Sequence record: EF437941
Strand: one strand, 5' to 3'
Length of the DNA stretch: 64,000 nt
DNA from: Escherichia phage Phi1
A program made the translations under genes and the position numbers. The notes under the pieces are model-generated. The model made no database searches, was not told the origin of the DNA, and was given only the letters and a program-made list of their open reading frames with translations. Below are positions 2,588 through 64,000 of the stretch, piece by piece. Every line of letters begins with the position of its first letter. The stretch's first letter is position 1.

Positions 2588-2774
2588 TTTGATTCTCCTT
2601 TGTTACTAGATAACGAATTTGGTCTTGCATTGCGATCAGTTCCCAGCGTGCTACTTTCATCATGGAAACTGACTCTTTGAACATAATATTAGCTTTTTCC
2701 TTCTCCCCTGTCAAGTAGATTTCTGCAATTTTTTCACAAAATTTTTGAGTTTCTTCATTCTTAAACGGTTTCAT
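2580..2774 (-). CDS. hypothetical protein
   Basis: ORF track start is TTG; first ATG (MKPFKNEE) chosen; promoter cassette immediately upstream. Confidence 0.45.
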   Translation of the reverse strand: MKPFKNEETQKFCEKIAEIYLTGEKEKANIMFKESVSMMKVARWELIAMQDQIRYLVTKENQNA

Positions 2775-2804
2775 ATAAGTCAACCTTTTGTTTTTGATGG
2801 GGAC

Positions 2805-2833
2805 ATTATGCTATATCCCCGATCCAGTGTCAA
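2805..2833 (-). promoter_or_regulatory. early sigma70-like promoter with stem-loop around -10 (PeSL-type)
   Basis: minus strand TTGACA-N17-CATAAT; GGGGATATAGCATAATGTCCCC hairpin. Confidence 0.5.
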
Positions 2834-2840
2834 TAACTTT

Positions 2841-3140
2841 TTAATCTTTTTTCAGTGCATCCATTACTCGCGCTGCGATCAGTTCTCGTAAGCACTGATA
2901 ACCATGATATTTGATGGCAATATCACGCAGGTCATTAACCAGTTCCCGTACTTCATGGTCTTTCAAATCGTCTCTGTATTTCGATTTAACCGTGTCTTTA
3001 GGTGGATTGCGGATAACCTGAAAACCTTGTTCTGCAATCACTGCGGCTTCTCGCTGGCGTTCATGCTGTACTGTATTTTTGATCAGGTCTACTTCCATGA
3101 ACTTTGCCATACTCATCATCATGTTATTCTTTTTGCTCAT
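2841..3140 (-). CDS. hypothetical protein
   Basis: ORF 2841..3221 trimmed to internal ATG (MSKKNN) because a promoter cassette occupies 3175..3202. Confidence 0.5.
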   Translation of the reverse strand: MSKKNNMMMSMAKFMEVDLIKNTVQHERQREAAVIAEQGFQVIRNPPKDTVKSKYRDDLKDHEVRELVNDLRDIAIKYHGYQCLRELIAARVMDALKKD

Positions 3141-3174
3141 TATTAAATCCTCATAAAAGAAAAGGGAGACTCCC

Positions 3175-52532: not shown

Positions 52533-53231
52533 CTAACCACGGGTATAGTGTTCCAGAACAACTGTCAGATGAATATATTCTAATAGATCTTTCCAAAAGT
52601 CAACATCTGGTTCTTCCGGCATACCGTTTTTCTTTGCCTCTTCACGAGCGAGTTTAACACGCTCGTAGAGATCTTTCAATTCTTCCCGCACATTATCAAA
52701 GGTTCTTTCTCCTAACTTACACGCTAAAATAGAAGAACGTCGCGCGAGCGGGAATTGTAGATCACCTGTCTGATAGATTTCAAGTAGCTGATAACCAACA
52801 CGCAGAGCATGAGAAAGATCTTTCCAGTTACTGAAATACTTTTCAGATTTGGCTACCTGTTTCTTGAGATAACCAGACAAACCCCACATCCCAACATGAT
52901 AGAATTTATCGCGATGTGTTCGGATGTATTCCCATTCTCTGGAGGATTCGATCAACATGTTACTAGGAGCGTGCACCATGTCAATAGCGCCGATATCACC
53001 TTTACATGCCAGATTGATAAACCGTTTTAGACTGAACATATTAACGTCAATATCGTCTTTGGTGTTCTTGATACCTTGACCGCTAGTGCTTTGGTCATAG
53101 TGTTCTTTCATCGATCCTAAGATAATTTCTTTCGCAGTCGGAACAAAGATACCACGATAATCTTTATCGGAATTTTCAGTATCAAGGCCGTATAAGTGAG
53201 ATCCGAAGACCATTTTAACCATTGTATGCAT
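52533..53231 (-). CDS. Pol-beta superfamily nucleotidyltransferase (function unknown)
   Basis: 232 aa; N-terminal FGSHLYG-x6-SDKD = G[SG]x(9-13)DxD nucleotidyltransferase signature; helical C-terminal half; GAGGG RBS. Confidence 0.65.
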   Translation of the reverse strand: MHTMVKMVFGSHLYGLDTENSDKDYRGIFVPTAKEIILGSMKEHYDQSTSGQGIKNTKDDIDVNMFSLKRFINLACKGDIGAIDMVHAPSNMLIESSREWEYIRTHRDKFYHVGMWGLSGYLKKQVAKSEKYFSNWKDLSHALRVGYQLLEIYQTGDLQFPLARRSSILACKLGERTFDNVREELKDLYERVKLAREEAKKNGMPEEPDVDFWKDLLEYIHLTVVLEHYTRG

Positions 53232-53275
53232 AATTAAACCCTCAGTTGATTAAGAGATTGCATCATATCATCATA

Positions 53276-53308
53276 AAACGAAAAAGCCAACCCTTTTCGG
53301 ATTGGCTT
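53276..53308 (-). terminator. rho-independent terminator
   Basis: GCCAATCCGAAAAGGGTTGGC hairpin followed by T-run, downstream of grcA-like gene. Confidence 0.55.
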
Positions 53309-53317
53309 GATGAAAAA

Positions 53318-53734
53318 TTAGAGAGATTCGGTAAAGGTACGCGCGATAACGTCACGCTGCTGGTCTGGAGTCAGACTATTGAAGCGCACCGCGTAACCAG
53401 AAACGCGAATTGTAAGCTGCGGGTACTTCTCAGGATGTTCAACAGCGTCCAGCAACATTTCTCGTAACAATACGTTAACATTCAAATGCTGACCACCTTC
53501 GACAACCGGAGCACCATTATCTACAATGACAGGGCGGAAGCTAGTTGTGTGCAGTGCCAGCGAATCGACGTCTTCTGCGGTGATCACATGATCTTCTGCG
53601 AAAGTTTTACTAACAATTACTTTAGCGCCGATCAGTGCTTTCGGTTCGGATACCAGAATCATAGGCGCGAAGTGTCCACCAATAATAGTACCTTTATGCT
53701 CACCTTTCATGATTTGAATTGCTTTAAATTCCAT
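53318..53734 (-). CDS. grcA: autonomous glycyl radical cofactor GrcA/YfiD-like protein
   Basis: 138 aa; C-terminal about 60 aa nearly identical to E. coli GrcA as I remember it ([11 protein letters not shown]...[32 protein letters not shown]). Confidence 0.85.
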
Positions 53735-53744
53735 AATTCACCTC

Positions 53745-53870
53745 TTATAGATCAGGACGTTCGTCATTAACTTTTCCAACCAAAACACCATAGAGTTTAT
53801 CAGGTTGGACTTTACGATTCTTTTTAATTGTAGCACGAAATCGACGAGCTACGCTATCTTTATTTTTCAT
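53745..53870 (-). CDS. small basic protein (41 aa)
   Basis: manual translation MKNKDSVARRFRATIKKNRKVQPDKLYGVLVGKVNDERPDL; TAATG overlap with upstream gene. Confidence 0.35.
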   Translation of the reverse strand: MKNKDSVARRFRATIKKNRKVQPDKLYGVLVGKVNDERPDL

Positions 53871-54355
53871 TAGTTGATACCTAAGCCAATGAAAATAGGT
53901 TGGTCTTCTACATTACCCATCCCAACACTAAGTCGATTTACTTCTAAAAACTGCAATACGCTGTCAGTAAATCCGCGCATGGTAGTATCTAGGATAAAAA
54001 TTGTTTTGTCAAGACTACGACCTCGCCATGTGATCGGATTCAGGAAAGTTCGGATCGACGTACAATCTACATTTGAAATATTTACATTTTCACCGCGACC
54101 GCGATCTCGGATCGTTTTGACATGTTCCCGCGTTGTTGAAACGATAAAGACACTATAGCCTTTTCGCGTATAATGATCATATAACTTGATTGTAGCGTCT
54201 GTATGCCCTGTTTGACGGCCTAAATTGATTGAGACGATGGAATCTAGGTCATCAGCAAAATTGCGTCGCTTACGGCGTTCTATGATGCCATTTACGGCAG
54301 ATACACACGCAGCATAAATCAAATCTTTACTTTCTAATTTTACATCAATATTCAT
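53870..54355 (-). CDS. hypothetical protein
   Basis: 161-aa ORF. Confidence 0.5.
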   Translation of the reverse strand: MNIDVKLESKDLIYAACVSAVNGIIERRKRRNFADDLDSIVSINLGRQTGHTDATIKLYDHYTRKGYSVFIVSTTREHVKTIRDRGRGENVNISNVDCTSIRTFLNPITWRGRSLDKTIFILDTTMRGFTDSVLQFLEVNRLSVGMGNVEDQPIFIGLGIN

Positions 54356-60427: not shown

Positions 60428-60898
60428 TTACAGTTTGGTCGTCCACTCCAGGTCTAGATCTTCGACATATTCATGAGATCGGACAATCTCTAAATCGAAC
60501 TCTAGGTCAGTGCCAAATTTACGCGCACCAACATCATAAGAAAGCGTGATATGCGGTACATATTCAGGATAATCCCACGTCGCACCTAAAGCAGTTCCGA
60601 TATCGTGTCTGAATTGCATGTAGTCGCTTTCAAATGCCAACACAAGCGCATTAGTACCGGATTGAGTTTCAAACACTTTCAGATGGCATAGAGAGCCTAA
60701 AAACTTTTCACCCTCTTCTGGGATAAACGGAACATAGACACGAGAATATAAGATAGTGCTATGCAGTTTATCACGAGGAACGGCATTAGGCAGATCGTAG
60801 AACTCCTGCAATTTTTCAATGCGGTCTAGTGTATCCTCAGTGAATTTAACAGCCGCATATGTACCTTTAACGGATTCTCGAAACGGGGTCATAATCAA
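60428..60898 (-). CDS. 57B: 2H phosphoesterase, gp57B/Acb1-like (anti-CBASS cyclic-nucleotide phosphodiesterase candidate)
   Basis: 156 aa; two H-x-T/S-x motifs (HSTI, HITL) at the spacing of 2H phosphoesterases; immediately downstream of 57A-like and gene 1 as in T4. Confidence 0.65.
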   Translation of the reverse strand: MIMTPFRESVKGTYAAVKFTEDTLDRIEKLQEFYDLPNAVPRDKLHSTILYSRVYVPFIPEEGEKFLGSLCHLKVFETQSGTNALVLAFESDYMQFRHDIGTALGATWDYPEYVPHITLSYDVGARKFGTDLEFDLEIVRSHEYVEDLDLEWTTKL

Positions 60899-61187: not shown

Positions 61188-61844
61188 TTAAATGTTCGCG
61201 AGAATCGCGCTTTCAAATTCTTCTAATGTGCCATTATTTATAATGATGGTTTCACCGTCAATAGGCAAAATTCCTTTTTCGGTGGAGTGAGTCGATACAA
61301 TACCAGTATCACGCTGAATATGCAACACCTTAGCACCCATAGAACGCATGAGAGCAATTTCAATAGGCTGACGCACATCAACCACTACAAAATACCCTTC
61401 TTCATTTTTGCGCTTCATAAACTCATCCACAAAGAGATTACACCAATAAAGCGGATTGATCAAGTTAACCATTATATCAGTACCGAGAGTGGTTAACATG
61501 AGACGAATAGACCAGACGTTATTATGTTTTTCGCCGATCTCATTAACGACCTTGTAAATCTCAGCCAGACGATCACAAGTAAAGGAGCTACCGCCATACT
61601 TCGAATCTAGCATAAGCAGACACTGAATAAACCACTTATGCGCGGTGTAGGTATCAATACCTAGATCGGCTTCTCTGTCACGCCCTAACCCGTCAAAGTC
61701 AAGATAAGTCAGACCTAAGTCTGGTTGACATTCGCATAAGATTTCTTTGATCGGTGCTGCCAGTTGATAACTGTGTCCATCAATGATTAACGCGGCAGTG
61801 TCTTTTCCTACTCGCTTTTTACCACAAAGTGCAATCAATTTCAT
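61188..61844 (-). CDS. 1: deoxynucleoside monophosphate kinase gp1
   Basis: 218 aa; P-loop GKKRVGKDT, TLGTD, VVVDVRQ; collinear with T4 gp1 as remembered. Confidence 0.85.
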   Translation of the reverse strand: MKLIALCGKKRVGKDTAALIIDGHSYQLAAPIKEILCECQPDLGLTYLDFDGLGRDREADLGIDTYTAHKWFIQCLLMLDSKYGGSSFTCDRLAEIYKVVNEIGEKHNNVWSIRLMLTTLGTDIMVNLINPLYWCNLFVDEFMKRKNEEGYFVVVDVRQPIEIALMRSMGAKVLHIQRDTGIVSTHSTEKGILPIDGETIIINNGTLEEFESAILANI

Positions 61845-61859
61845 TATATAAGCCTCTTA

Positions 61860-62450
61860 TTACTTTCTAAAAGCAGGGTGCATAGCTTTAATACCTTCCA
61901 CCCGCTGACGATCCGCCGCCTGAATTGCTGGGCGAGGAACGATCAGTTGACCATCACGTTCAATGCTCATTGTTTTAAATGGAAGAATTGCAGTACACAC
62001 CAGAGATTCATGCATATCATCGGTGTATGTTAACTCAAGTTCCCCCAATTGTGAACACCAACAACCATAAAAGTTAAAGGTGCAAACAATGTTACGTCGT
62101 TCATTGTCCATCATGTGAACTTGAACGGCTTCCGGCATTGAATCCTTCCACGCTGTGGAATTACCGTTATTGTAGTCTACTATAGAAAGCATCCATGTGT
62201 AAAGGTTTAGATAGCTTTCTAGATGTTCATCGACAATAAACCGAACTACCAACGGGTCAAACTCCACATGACTAGACGGATAATCAGCAACCGCCAAACC
62301 ATATTGACCAGCAACTTGCTTAGTCGGTGGAATGGTTATAGCAGGAAGTGTAACACCTTGACAGTTTAAAGTAAAGCCTTTTGTTAGTTGTCCATCTGGA
62401 ATATTGATCTGCCAGTTACTAGGGTTAGCATAGTTAAAGAGATTAGACAT
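61860..62450 (-). CDS. hypothetical protein at gene 3 position (possible tail completion protein)
   Basis: 196-aa ORF following gene 1; positional inference only; GAGGAA RBS. Confidence 0.4.
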   Translation of the reverse strand: MSNLFNYANPSNWQINIPDGQLTKGFTLNCQGVTLPAITIPPTKQVAGQYGLAVADYPSSHVEFDPLVVRFIVDEHLESYLNLYTWMLSIVDYNNGNSTAWKDSMPEAVQVHMMDNERRNIVCTFNFYGCWCSQLGELELTYTDDMHESLVCTAILPFKTMSIERDGQLIVPRPAIQAADRQRVEGIKAMHPAFRK

Positions 62451-62639
62451 TACTGATTCCTCAAATGAAAATATTTATTAACAATTGTCGCTTTGCGACG
62501 TGCCGTAGGCACTGACTACTTTTTAACCGAAACAAATTTTTATTATTCTAAAGATCTTTCTTCGTTTTGGTTATGTTTTAACCAATAACTATATTTTTAT
62601 ACAGTAATAAATAAAACGGGTACTATACGAGGACTTCTT

Positions 62640-62894
62640 ATGACAGAAGACATTTTGTTAAAACTCTATGATCGTTTGGATAACGAATTAGCAACATTGC
62701 GGGGTGAAGTTCTCTATTTGTCTAAATGCAATACAGATCTGCTTAAGCAGATTGCAGAAAGGGATGACCAAATAAAATCCCTTTCAGGTGCATTACGTGA
62801 TCGCGACAAGGCATTAGAGATTTTACAGCGTGTTACCAATAAGGAAGAATTAAAAGACTTCTTACATGGTTATGCTCATGCTATCGATCTATAA
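62640..62894 (+). CDS. hypothetical coiled-coil protein (plus strand)
   Basis: 84-aa ORF with GAGGA RBS 7 nt upstream; followed by strong bidirectional terminator. Confidence 0.5.
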   Translation: MTEDILLKLYDRLDNELATLRGEVLYLSKCNTDLLKQIAERDDQIKSLSGALRDRDKALEILQRVTNKEELKDFLHGYAHAIDL

Positions 62895-62895
62895 T

Positions 62896-62926
62896 AAAAA
62901 AGCCCGTCAATGACGGGCTTAATTTT
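62896..62926. terminator. bidirectional rho-independent terminator
   Basis: AAAAA AGCCCGTCAATGACGGGCT TAATTTT between convergent genes. Confidence 0.6.
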
Positions 62927-63977
62927 AATATGTATCAGCTAATTTAATTATGTTATCAAGTTCCGTGATTGGTAAAGTTTCTGTGTATCCATCTTTCAAC
63001 ATGGATTTGTCAACAACGCCACAATGATAAGTTCTCTTTATTTCCTTTTCAAGTTCCCACGGAATCCAGCCATCAACACTTTGTTTGACGTAAACAAGTT
63101 TGTGAACAAACTTAGATTTCTGCATATGTTGTTTCATTCTGGTTTCTGGTAATTCATTGGTTACACCAAACTTTATAAATTTATCATCTAACGTCTGGAT
63201 ATAAAAATATCCCATCTCAGATGGACGATAGCCAGAAGAACTACATTTCGGACACCCTTTAGATCTATGACCATCAAAAGTACAAAATCTAACAGAAAAC
63301 TCCTGATTGTGTTTATTGCACTTCATTTTCAACCATGATTTATCAGATCCTATCCATCCACCATCAAATTCAATAAAACTATAATTTAATTGGTCGCATC
63401 TTTCAATTATTCGTTTAATAGCCACACTTTCTGGTAACAAGTGTGTTGTCTTTTTACTTTCGTTTACACATTTCTTACAACCACATGTCCCACACTTCGT
63501 GAAGTTAAAGAATTGTGTGTTCTTCCAAATATGGTTATGTTTCTTACATTTTAATATCATTTTAGTAGTGACGTGCTTCCACGCACCAACAAAACCTAAA
63601 AATTCATAGTTTAATTCCTCACATCTTTCTTTTGCTATTTTAATAGCGTCTTCTTCTAGTAAAGACCCGTTACACTGCGGACAGCCTACTATAACCTTTT
63701 TACCATAGAAACTATTGCTAGAAACATCATAGATAGACCCGTGCTTATTGCATTGGATAACAGATCTAGTCAATTTTCCTTTCCATTCTCCAGAAAATCC
63801 TAAGAATGTATGGTCGACAAGTTTACACCTTTCAATAACTTTATCCGCAAATTCTCTAGGAGATTTTGTTACCTTGTTTACTCTGTATTCTATTTCTTCC
63901 GGTTGACGAAGATCATAAACGTGGGGATTGCTCCCCACGGAATTAATATTACGCATCTTTCCACACCTTCCTTGCAT
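62925..63977 (-). CDS. multi-zinc-ribbon protein with C-terminal T5orf172/GIY-YIG-like domain (homing-endonuclease-like)
   Basis: 350 aa; three repeated modules with CxxC pairs; C-terminus GYFYIQ...KFGVT...R...E pattern resembling GIY-YIG/T5orf172. Confidence 0.5.
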   Translation of the reverse strand: MQGRCGKMRNINSVGSNPHVYDLRQPEEIEYRVNKVTKSPREFADKVIERCKLVDHTFLGFSGEWKGKLTRSVIQCNKHGSIYDVSSNSFYGKKVIVGCPQCNGSLLEEDAIKIAKERCEELNYEFLGFVGAWKHVTTKMILKCKKHNHIWKNTQFFNFTKCGTCGCKKCVNESKKTTHLLPESVAIKRIIERCDQLNYSFIEFDGGWIGSDKSWLKMKCNKHNQEFSVRFCTFDGHRSKGCPKCSSSGYRPSEMGYFYIQTLDDKFIKFGVTNELPETRMKQHMQKSKFVHKLVYVKQSVDGWIPWELEKEIKRTYHCGVVDKSMLKDGYTETLPITELDNIIKLADTY

Positions 63978-64000
63978 CGTAATTTTTTCCCTTTGACAAG

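Follow-up and report, generated by a model that had tools for sequence, protein, structure and literature searches.

A putative homing endonuclease gene of the CapR–T5orf172 class beside gene 2 of Escherichia phage Phi1

Background

What is the extra DNA that separates gene 3 from gene 2 in Escherichia phage Phi1? We analysed a stretch of 64,000 nucleotides (nt) of this genome (sequence record EF437941), hereafter the window, in which gene 2 still comes after gene 3 with additional DNA in between. An original prediction, made from the sequence alone, had described positions 62451-63977 as a possible mobile insertion, composed of a plus-strand gene of 84 amino acids (aa), a bidirectional terminator, and a 350-aa open reading frame (ORF) resembling a homing endonuclease. 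These features and the gp3-like ORF beside them were all recovered where they had been placed (Table 1). We conclude, with a probability of about 0.78, that the 350-aa ORF represents a free-standing homing endonuclease gene (HEG) of the class that combines CapR zinc ribbons with a T5orf172 domain of the GIY-YIG superfamily. This reading draws on the anatomy of the gene, its polymorphism among related phages, the predicted fold of its product, the divergence of its flank, the purifying selection acting on it, and the swap of a cassette within its DNA-binding region.

Results and discussion

A variable gene at a conserved site

The stretch 61800-64000 matched 57 phage records at 88-99% identity, every one of them from Krischvirus, the lineage of RB49-like T4-type coliphages that hosts the window. 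We surveyed the occupancy of the site with the gp3-gp4 segment of RB49 as query against these 57 records. Most of them displayed an empty site, with a span of 2,372 bp in which the gp2 stop codon and the CATTAAGCCCG terminator follow each other, the terminator beginning 4 nt past the stop. The order in RB49 is gp3, the 84-aa gene on the plus strand, the terminator, and gp2, without a gene in the gap. The window-type gene was carried by 9 of the 57 records, and the corresponding extra DNA of about 1.02 kb was seen in G2248, FL37, FL38, ECD7, ELT3, Skers, pEJ01, and Cognac. Five records, among them JSE, G37-3, PTE-Eco09, and AV108, displayed a relative with 28% identity at the same site (a 380-aa gene).

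The insertion measures about 1,024 bp, bounded by the gp2 stop codon on one side and the convergent terminator on the other. Homology with RB49 runs unbroken from gp1 through the terminator and ends exactly where the 350-aa ORF has its stop codon (62925-62927), the place of the gp2 stop codon in RB49. The comparison of related genomes that had been proposed for this junction thus revealed a presence/absence polymorphism with conserved flanks, and uniform carriage of the gene was not seen. Two features of free-standing HEGs are displayed here: sporadic presence at one site between conserved flanks, and an intergenic position beside a conserved gene that itself contains a divergent tract.

The empty junction reads GATGCATAAC-ATTAA-GCCCG…, and the occupied one GATGCGTAAT-ATTAA-[about 1,019 bp]-ATTAA-GCCCG…. 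A search for a target-site duplication, which had also been suggested, returned only this 5-bp ATTAA microhomology at both junctions. We rejected it as a duplication: it is too short, AT-rich, and partly stop-codon context. Homing leaves no target-site duplication.

A zinc-ribbon array joined to a predicted nuclease domain

The exact 350-aa protein was not on record when looked up, the nearest entry being 89% identical (P0001, encoded by the 17.8-kb metagenomic contig L005), and NCBIfam displayed nothing above noise for either the 350-aa or the 84-aa protein. The 350-aa protein matched PHROG 681, labelled 'endonuclease', at 1.4e-76. Its residues 39-249 form three tandem, mutually alignable repeats of about 68 aa, and Pfam CapR (PF21817) was matched with 40.8 bits (cut-off 24.2, E 2.5e-10), in three stretches at a permissive threshold. 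The alignment of the repeats and the CapR match both bear out the three zinc-ribbon-like repeats of the original prediction. The layout of a repeat is a helix ending in ERC, a strand with F-x-G-F-x-G-x-W, and a zinc site C-x-K-H … G-C-x-x-C, and the AlphaFold model displays a helix followed by three strands. All three repeats contain two pairs of zinc ligands spaced about 20-26 residues apart, and these ligands are conserved in relatives.

CapR represses the capsid operon in PLE, a satellite of Vibrio cholerae, and was recognised as a DNA-binding domain domesticated from the putative homing endonucleases of phage ICP1 (PMC8096241). Among T5orf172 endonuclease genes, 87% have at least one zinc-finger domain of the CapR, DUF723, or DUF4379 type, often repeated and shuffled (PMC10448857). 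We also observed relatives (P0007, P0009, P0010, P0012, and P0013) in which the zinc-ribbon array is followed by another C-terminal domain, with the motif IE(Y/F/I)DG.QHF replacing the T5orf172-type one. Judging by these alignments, the same array has been joined to at least two different C-terminal modules.

The C-terminal domain belongs to a divergent branch. Scanned alone, it reached 14.5 bits for GIY-YIG (cut-off 22.6, E 0.046) and displayed no match to T5orf172; in the JSE relative, T5orf172 was matched at E 0.0068, below threshold. A HMMER scan of the domain against 1.8 billion representatives recovered 778 relatives. Among 54 aligned relatives, MUG113 was matched in 22 and T5orf172 in 17 (E<0.01), and some exceeded the gathering scores, with 26.4, 25.9, and 25.5 bits for MUG113 (cut-off 22.3) and 22.9 for T5orf172 (cut-off 20). 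The assignment to T5orf172/MUG113 is therefore transitive, since the Pfam matches come via relatives and not from the window protein.

Conservation and fold point in the same direction. Y259, K269, G271, E310, and E333 never vary among the 54 relatives, at least 90% of which also keep R280, so that the Tyr, the Arg, and the Glu expected of a catalytic site are all retained. By motif order, these residues would correspond to the Tyr of GIY, the 'KIG' variant of YIG that characterises T5orf172, the catalytic Arg, and the metal-binding Glu; their equation with Y/R/E of I-TevI and E180 of the ICP1 protein Odn is likewise one of motif order and not of residue-level superposition. The full-length AlphaFold model consists of four loosely connected domains, and we therefore modelled the C-terminal domain alone, which yielded a confident structure (predicted local distance difference test 93.8, predicted template modelling (TM) score 0.86) with the topology β-β-α-β-α-β-α. 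This includes the arrangement of a GIY-YIG fold, a β-hairpin bearing both motifs and then α, β, and α. Two structure-directed searches led elsewhere: Foldseek of the full-length model against the PDB returned only meaningless matches of low TM score (for example tandem double-stranded RNA-binding domain proteins and RnlA), which we discarded, and the C-terminal profile against PDB sequences returned only chance matches to HP1 chromodomains (E about 0.5). The GIY-YIG/T5orf172-like motif set that had been predicted is conserved in the family and belongs to a predicted nuclease fold, as suggested by the model and by the Pfam matches of relatives. In Odn, the one T5orf172 protein with a biochemical test, DNA cleavage needs a Glu (E180) (PMC8263062). 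By analogy, the C-terminal domain of the window protein probably cleaves DNA.

Reading frame and expression

The longest frame gives 350 aa, and a second ATG at 63956, which overlaps the gp2 stop codon (ATGCGTAA), gives 343 aa. The closest relatives are called from a start of the 63956 type (343-344 aa), and this ATG is already present in HEG-less genomes, within the last codons of gp2. The second ATG is the most likely translation start.

A GC-rich hairpin (Table 1) begins 9 nt past the gp2 stop codon, within codons 6-12 of the 343-aa frame. Its stem is kept in the metagenomic allele of L005, where the loop is different; in the JSE-type insert this position is taken by another hairpin, and in the empty site by the terminator. 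Possibly this hairpin acts as an attenuator or translational brake that keeps expression of the endonuclease low.

The T4 late promoter TATAAATA had no copy near the region, its copies in the window being fewer than expected by chance, and a scan for sigma-70-type promoters performed no better than on shuffled sequence. As no promoter-like site of its own was found and the orientation is the same, the HEG is most likely read from the gp4/gp2 transcript, which suggests that both its transcription and its translation are coupled to gp2.

A divergent gene 2 end accompanies the endonuclease gene

The end of gene 2 adjoining the endonuclease gene displayed a marked divergence. In all nine carriers, the final ~75 nt of gene 2 are 79.7% identical to RB49, whereas in HEG-less genomes the gene 2 end is 96-100% identical to RB49, except in MIZ4, MIZ5, and kvi. 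The contrast is also seen within single genes: in ECD7 and Cognac the first 720 nt of gene 2 are 97-100% identical to RB49 and the last ~100 nt 80-83%. The change includes amino-acid replacements (YMPTYQFMSKGKKY -> YLNTYKFVSKGKNY), and the gene 2 end present in the window, its final 52 nt or 17 codons (ending …LSKGKNYDARKVWKDA*, stop codon at 63949-63951), is the variant allele of the HEG carriers. In JSE-type carriers the divergent tract extends over ~460 nt at 60-83% identity.

The T4 free-standing endonucleases have their cut site in a conserved gene next to their own, with co-conversion of the flanking markers (PMC2988022). Since the pattern at this flank matches theirs, the likely target of the window enzyme is the gene 2 3' end of genomes that lack the HEG.

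The three exceptions carry the variant gp2 end without an endonuclease gene (positions 1444-1604 both in MIZ4, L009, and in kvi, L010), and their junction, TAA-GATTAAG, is the same as the one at the 3' side of the HEG in the metagenomic allele. They may represent natural 'resistant or lost' alleles. The kvi tract is itself recombinant, returning to the RB49 type in its last ~25 nt.

Purifying selection and a swapped DNA-binding cassette

The composition of the gene is foreign to its surroundings: its GC content is 34.7%, against 40.3 ± 1.8% for windows of the same size, of which it falls in the lowest 0.8%. The ORF was intact in every carrier seen, and the ratio of nonsynonymous to synonymous substitution rates (dN/dS) was 0.05-0.22, indicating purifying selection in all three segments of the gene.

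Within this conserved frame, 540 nt encoding the repeat 1 zinc knuckle together with the whole of repeats 2 and 3 have a different history, the block now present being about 28% divergent in nucleotide sequence. Sliding identity to ECD7 and Cognac is 47-75% over this cassette and 98-100% in the flanks, which extend from gp1 to 63212 and over the N-terminal part at 63753-63932. The best GenBank matches of the cassette reached 71.5-72.1%, with none above. Its synonymous divergence (dS) is 1.54, compared to 0.02-0.04 in the flanks, and its dN/dS is 0.17. The metagenomic contig L005 is closer, with 78-90% identity over the cassette and dN/dS of 0.05-0.17 across all segments. The identity pattern, together with dS and dN/dS, indicates that the cassette was exchanged by recombination and not altered by fast point mutation, and that the gene is functional. 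Such an exchange agrees with the domain shuffling described for this class (PMC10448857).

The swap may have changed the target preference of the enzyme. We offer tentatively, as a proposal with well below even odds, that this is a case of natural retargeting: provided that the cassette determines the target sequence, gp2 variants resistant to the common allele, for instance those of the MIZ4/kvi type, may be cut by the window allele. If true, homing endonuclease and target would be engaged in an arms race that proceeds by swaps of DNA-binding cassettes, and the two alleles, as naturally matched enzymes, could be compared to read the recognition code of CapR-type zinc ribbons.

Proposed mechanism and alternative explanations

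Based on these findings, we postulate the following cycle. The HEG would be transcribed along with genes 4 and 2, translation would begin at the ATG overlapping the gp2 stop codon, and the hairpin just downstream of the start would limit expression. Through its three zinc-ribbon modules the enzyme would recognise an extended DNA site, which the C-terminal GIY-YIG-type domain would cut. During mixed infection with a relative lacking the gene, the HEG-less allele would be cleaved at the 3' end of gene 2 or close to it, and recombinational repair would copy the endonuclease gene and adjoining markers into the cut genome. The substitution cluster in the last ~75 nt of gene 2 would protect the enzyme's own genome. 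The sporadic presence between conserved flanks, the zinc ribbons, and the predicted nuclease fold all favour the homing-endonuclease-type element that had been proposed from the sequence.

Several points weigh against this interpretation. By itself, the window protein stays below the Pfam thresholds for GIY-YIG and for T5orf172. The variant gp2 allele is not strictly tied to the HEG, because MIZ4, MIZ5, and kvi carry it in the absence of the gene; their state could reflect gene loss, making them loss derivatives, or an older allele, the one present in the lineage invaded first. Purifying selection is equally expected of a domesticated gene. Finally, the variable presence across records may reflect gain or loss.

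Among the alternatives, the one that survives best, though we hold it to be unlikely, is that the ORF is a domesticated former homing endonuclease that no longer homes, now a transcriptional regulator like the CapR of PLE or a nuclease directed against competitors, satellites, or the host like ICP1 Odn. Both kinds of domestication are documented in the family (PMC8096241; PMC8263062), selection is purifying in all three segments of the ORF, and swaps of DNA-binding cassettes are what conflicts between phages and satellites display. A sporadic distribution (9/57 records) speaks against domestication, as do the distant relative at the same site in other genomes and the divergent tract in the adjoining essential gene, a feature that homing usually leaves behind. 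The residues of the nuclease motifs are moreover intact, whereas CapR lacks a nuclease domain, and PADLOC returned no credible hit, its single ThsB/TIR-like match (E 0.002, 16 bits) being judged spurious.

Less probable still is that the ORF is ancestral to the genus and was lost by deletion in most lineages, leaving in the window a decaying remnant, possibly without nuclease activity. The gp2 variants without the gene fit this view, their junction being as expected after a deletion between two stop codons, and so do the short ATTAA repeats on either side of the insert. Decay, however, is at odds with the low dN/dS (0.05-0.22) and with the intact ORF of every carrier. The foreign composition of the gene and the occupation of the same site by a second, distantly related gene with other junctions also speak against this view. 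Loss also belongs to the normal life cycle of a homing endonuclease and is compatible with invasion.

The 84-aa gene is a neighbour and not a passenger

The original prediction had placed the 350-aa ORF in one insertion with the terminator and the 84-aa gene. That they form a single mobile cassette between genes 3 and 2 is highly improbable: T4 has no gene between 3 and 2 (established T4 gene order) and the whole of 62200-63977 is the GC minimum of the window (29.6% in the intergenic part and 36.9% in the 84-aa ORF), but the 84-aa protein is present in 57/57 Krischvirus records at 95-100% aa identity, with or without the endonuclease, and homology with RB49 passes through its gene and the terminator unbroken. 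These comparisons already refute a single cassette for the present-day element. The insertion stands for the 350-aa ORF, which is variable, and falls for the 84-aa gene, which is fixed, with the break in homology lying past the terminator. Given its universal presence regardless of the endonuclease, the mobile unit is the 350-aa ORF alone, and the unbroken RB49 homology indicates that the two genes are separate in origin and time.

The 84-aa protein matched nothing beyond Krischvirus at E≤1e-3. On its distribution, the gene is a genus-specific core gene that neighbours the mobile element without being part of it. Given its low GC, it may be an older acquisition that has since become fixed. The view that it is the only convincing plus-strand gene of the window is consistent with our results: the four longest other plus-strand ORFs had no PHROG match and were treated as shadow ORFs. 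The terminator is common to this gene on the plus strand and to the gp4-gp2(-HEG) transcription unit on the minus strand.

Other endonuclease genes and the surrounding region

The gaps between gp3 and gp4 host further endonuclease genes. In AV108 and phiS, the gap that separates gp3 from the 84-aa gene contains a gene for an HNH-AP2 endonuclease of 177 aa (L004 3682-4215 and L008 1123-1656). In Makalu_002, PHB13, and Cognac, a 340-aa plus-strand endonuclease gene lies between gp2 and gp4 (L006 3535-4557 and L007 2514-3536). By these annotations, gp3–gp4 is a small hotspot, with four different endonuclease genes in three intergenic gaps of 57 near-identical genomes.

Some details of these sites deserve mention. 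Homology with AV108 breaks at window position 62482/62483, which marks a second site of insertion, 32 nt upstream from where gp3 starts, and the intergenic region between gp3 and the 84-aa gene contains two adjoining small hairpins, GTCGCTTTGCGAC and GTGCCGTAGGCAC, at 62487-62512. In Makalu_002 the 340-aa gene is labelled 'HNH family homing endonuclease', and its end overlaps that of gp4. Cognac has both the window-type endonuclease and the 340-aa gene, and its gene 2 is thus flanked by endonuclease genes on both sides. Other members of the window endonuclease family, ~31-33% identical, occur elsewhere in Krischvirus (GEC-3S 138977-139900, FL04 70240-71160, and GoldenSnicker 53024-53947); tblastn found no further copies of the family in the window.

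The neighbours on the gp1 side are a deoxynucleoside monophosphate kinase (gp1), gp57A, and an Acb1/57B phosphodiesterase, as identified by Pfam and PHROG. The gene at the 57B position (60428-60898, minus strand) matched Pfam Acb1, an anti-CBASS phosphodiesterase, at 1.5e-51, and is labelled 'RNA ligase' in several phage records. In the metagenomic contig L005, the precomputed Pfam assignment of the gp4 head-completion homologue (2696-3172) is Tn7_TnsA-like_N, a nuclease-like domain.

Table 1 Features of the gene 3 to gene 2 region, in window coordinates
Feature	Position	Strand	Basis and details
gp3-like ORF	61860-62450	-	Pfam Phage_T4_gp19 and PHROG 'tail tube'; labelled gp3 in relatives
84-aa ORF, coiled coil	62640-62894	+	PHROG 17832 (2e-57), function unknown
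Bidirectional terminator hairpin, 9-bp stem	62900-62920	both	Terminator-like score on either strand
350-aa ORF, putative homing endonuclease type	62925-63977	-	ORF list, PHROG 681, presence/absence
Predicted nuclease domain, residues 249-350	62928-63233	-	GIY-YIG superfamily, T5orf172/MUG113 branch; Y259, K269-F-G271, R280, E310, E333
Recombinant cassette, residues ~76-255	63213-63752	-	Sliding identity, dS
CapR-type repeat 3, residues 180-249	63231-63440	-	C220-x2-H223 … C242-x2-C245
CapR-type repeat 2, residues 107-174	63456-63659	-	C144-x2-H147 … C167-x2-C170; best Pfam stretch 114-167
CapR-type repeat 1, residues 39-106	63660-63863	-	C76-x2-H79 … C99-x2-C102
GC-rich hairpin, 8 bp (6 G-C), then TTTAT	63920-63939	-	Terminator-like scan and folds
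Gene 2 3' end (DNA end protector), continuing past the window edge	63949-64000	-	Translation and alignments

Significance and comparison with known systems

The interest of these findings is modest and lies in the occurrence of the class in a genus of T4-type phages, the four-gene hotspot near genes 3, 2, and 4, the clean association with a variant gene 2 end, and the swapped cassette. They reveal CapR–T5orf172 HEGs in T4-type Krischvirus, a class described mainly in ICP1 and in T5-like, Aeromonas, and Vibrio phages. The HEG-less state, the HEG-carrying state, and the state with a variant flank but no HEG all occur naturally, which provides, among E. coli phages that are easy to grow, material for comparison in mapping the cut site, in assessing the gene 2 substitutions that would confer immunity, and in assessing the specificity of swapped cassettes. 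As for annotation, the ORF is best described as a putative T5orf172-type homing endonuclease and the 84-aa gene as a separate, genus-specific gene.

The Seg proteins of T4 and I-TevI (PMC2988022) resemble the window gene in being encoded by free-standing intergenic genes, with the orientation of their neighbours and apparently no promoter of their own, and in the divergent or co-converted flank of a neighbouring gene. The order of domains is reversed, the nuclease being N-terminal in I-TevI and Seg and C-terminal in the window protein, and DNA would be bound by a triple zinc-ribbon array in place of the DNA-binding modules of Seg and I-TevI. The definition of a T4 seg gene, an N-terminal PF01541 domain and a C-terminal DNA-binding region, does not fit the window gene, in which PF01541 is below threshold. 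By analogy, the window gene probably functions in the manner of a seg gene, without belonging to that group.

Odn of ICP1 (Gp88; PMC8263062) is likewise a T5orf172-type nuclease, whose essential Glu corresponds by motif order to E333. It differs in its RepA_N DNA-binding domain and in being a domesticated weapon against a satellite; nothing suggests a satellite target for the window gene. The closest comparison at the same locus is the 380-aa endonuclease of JSE (YP_002922206), which displays the same site and orientation, CapR/DUF4379 repeats with a T5orf172-like C-terminus, and a hairpin past the gp2 stop codon. At 28% aa identity it is nevertheless a distinct gene, with its own intergenic spacer and ribosome-binding site; its insert replaces the last two codons of gp2 (KDA* -> KLF*), and its divergent gp2 tract is far longer (about 460 nt).

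The nearest system is the class of T5orf172 HEGs found in ICP1, T5-like, Plateaulake, and VpaJT-like phages (PMC10448857; PMC8096241), and tblastn relatives of the window endonuclease occur in T5, Aeromonas, and Vibrio phages. T4 itself lacks T5orf172 genes (PMC10448857), whereas the host lineage of the window is T4-type; five names searched in the supplementary files of that study (ECD7, JSE, RB49, Krischvirus, and GEC-3S) were not found there. The zinc ligands also differ, CxxH…CxxC in the window protein and CxxC…CxC in CapR (PMC8096241), and the nuclease domain, unlike that of the published class, misses the Pfam thresholds when taken alone. Relatives in GenBank already bear the label 'endonuclease' or that of a 'putative GIY-YIG nuclease family protein'. 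The window gene shares with this class an N-terminal CapR array followed by a C-terminal T5orf172/MUG113-type domain, a free-standing position beside an essential structural gene, a location at a boundary of sequence exchange, and recombination within the DNA-binding repeats, and is a new allele of this published class of CapR–T5orf172 endonucleases.

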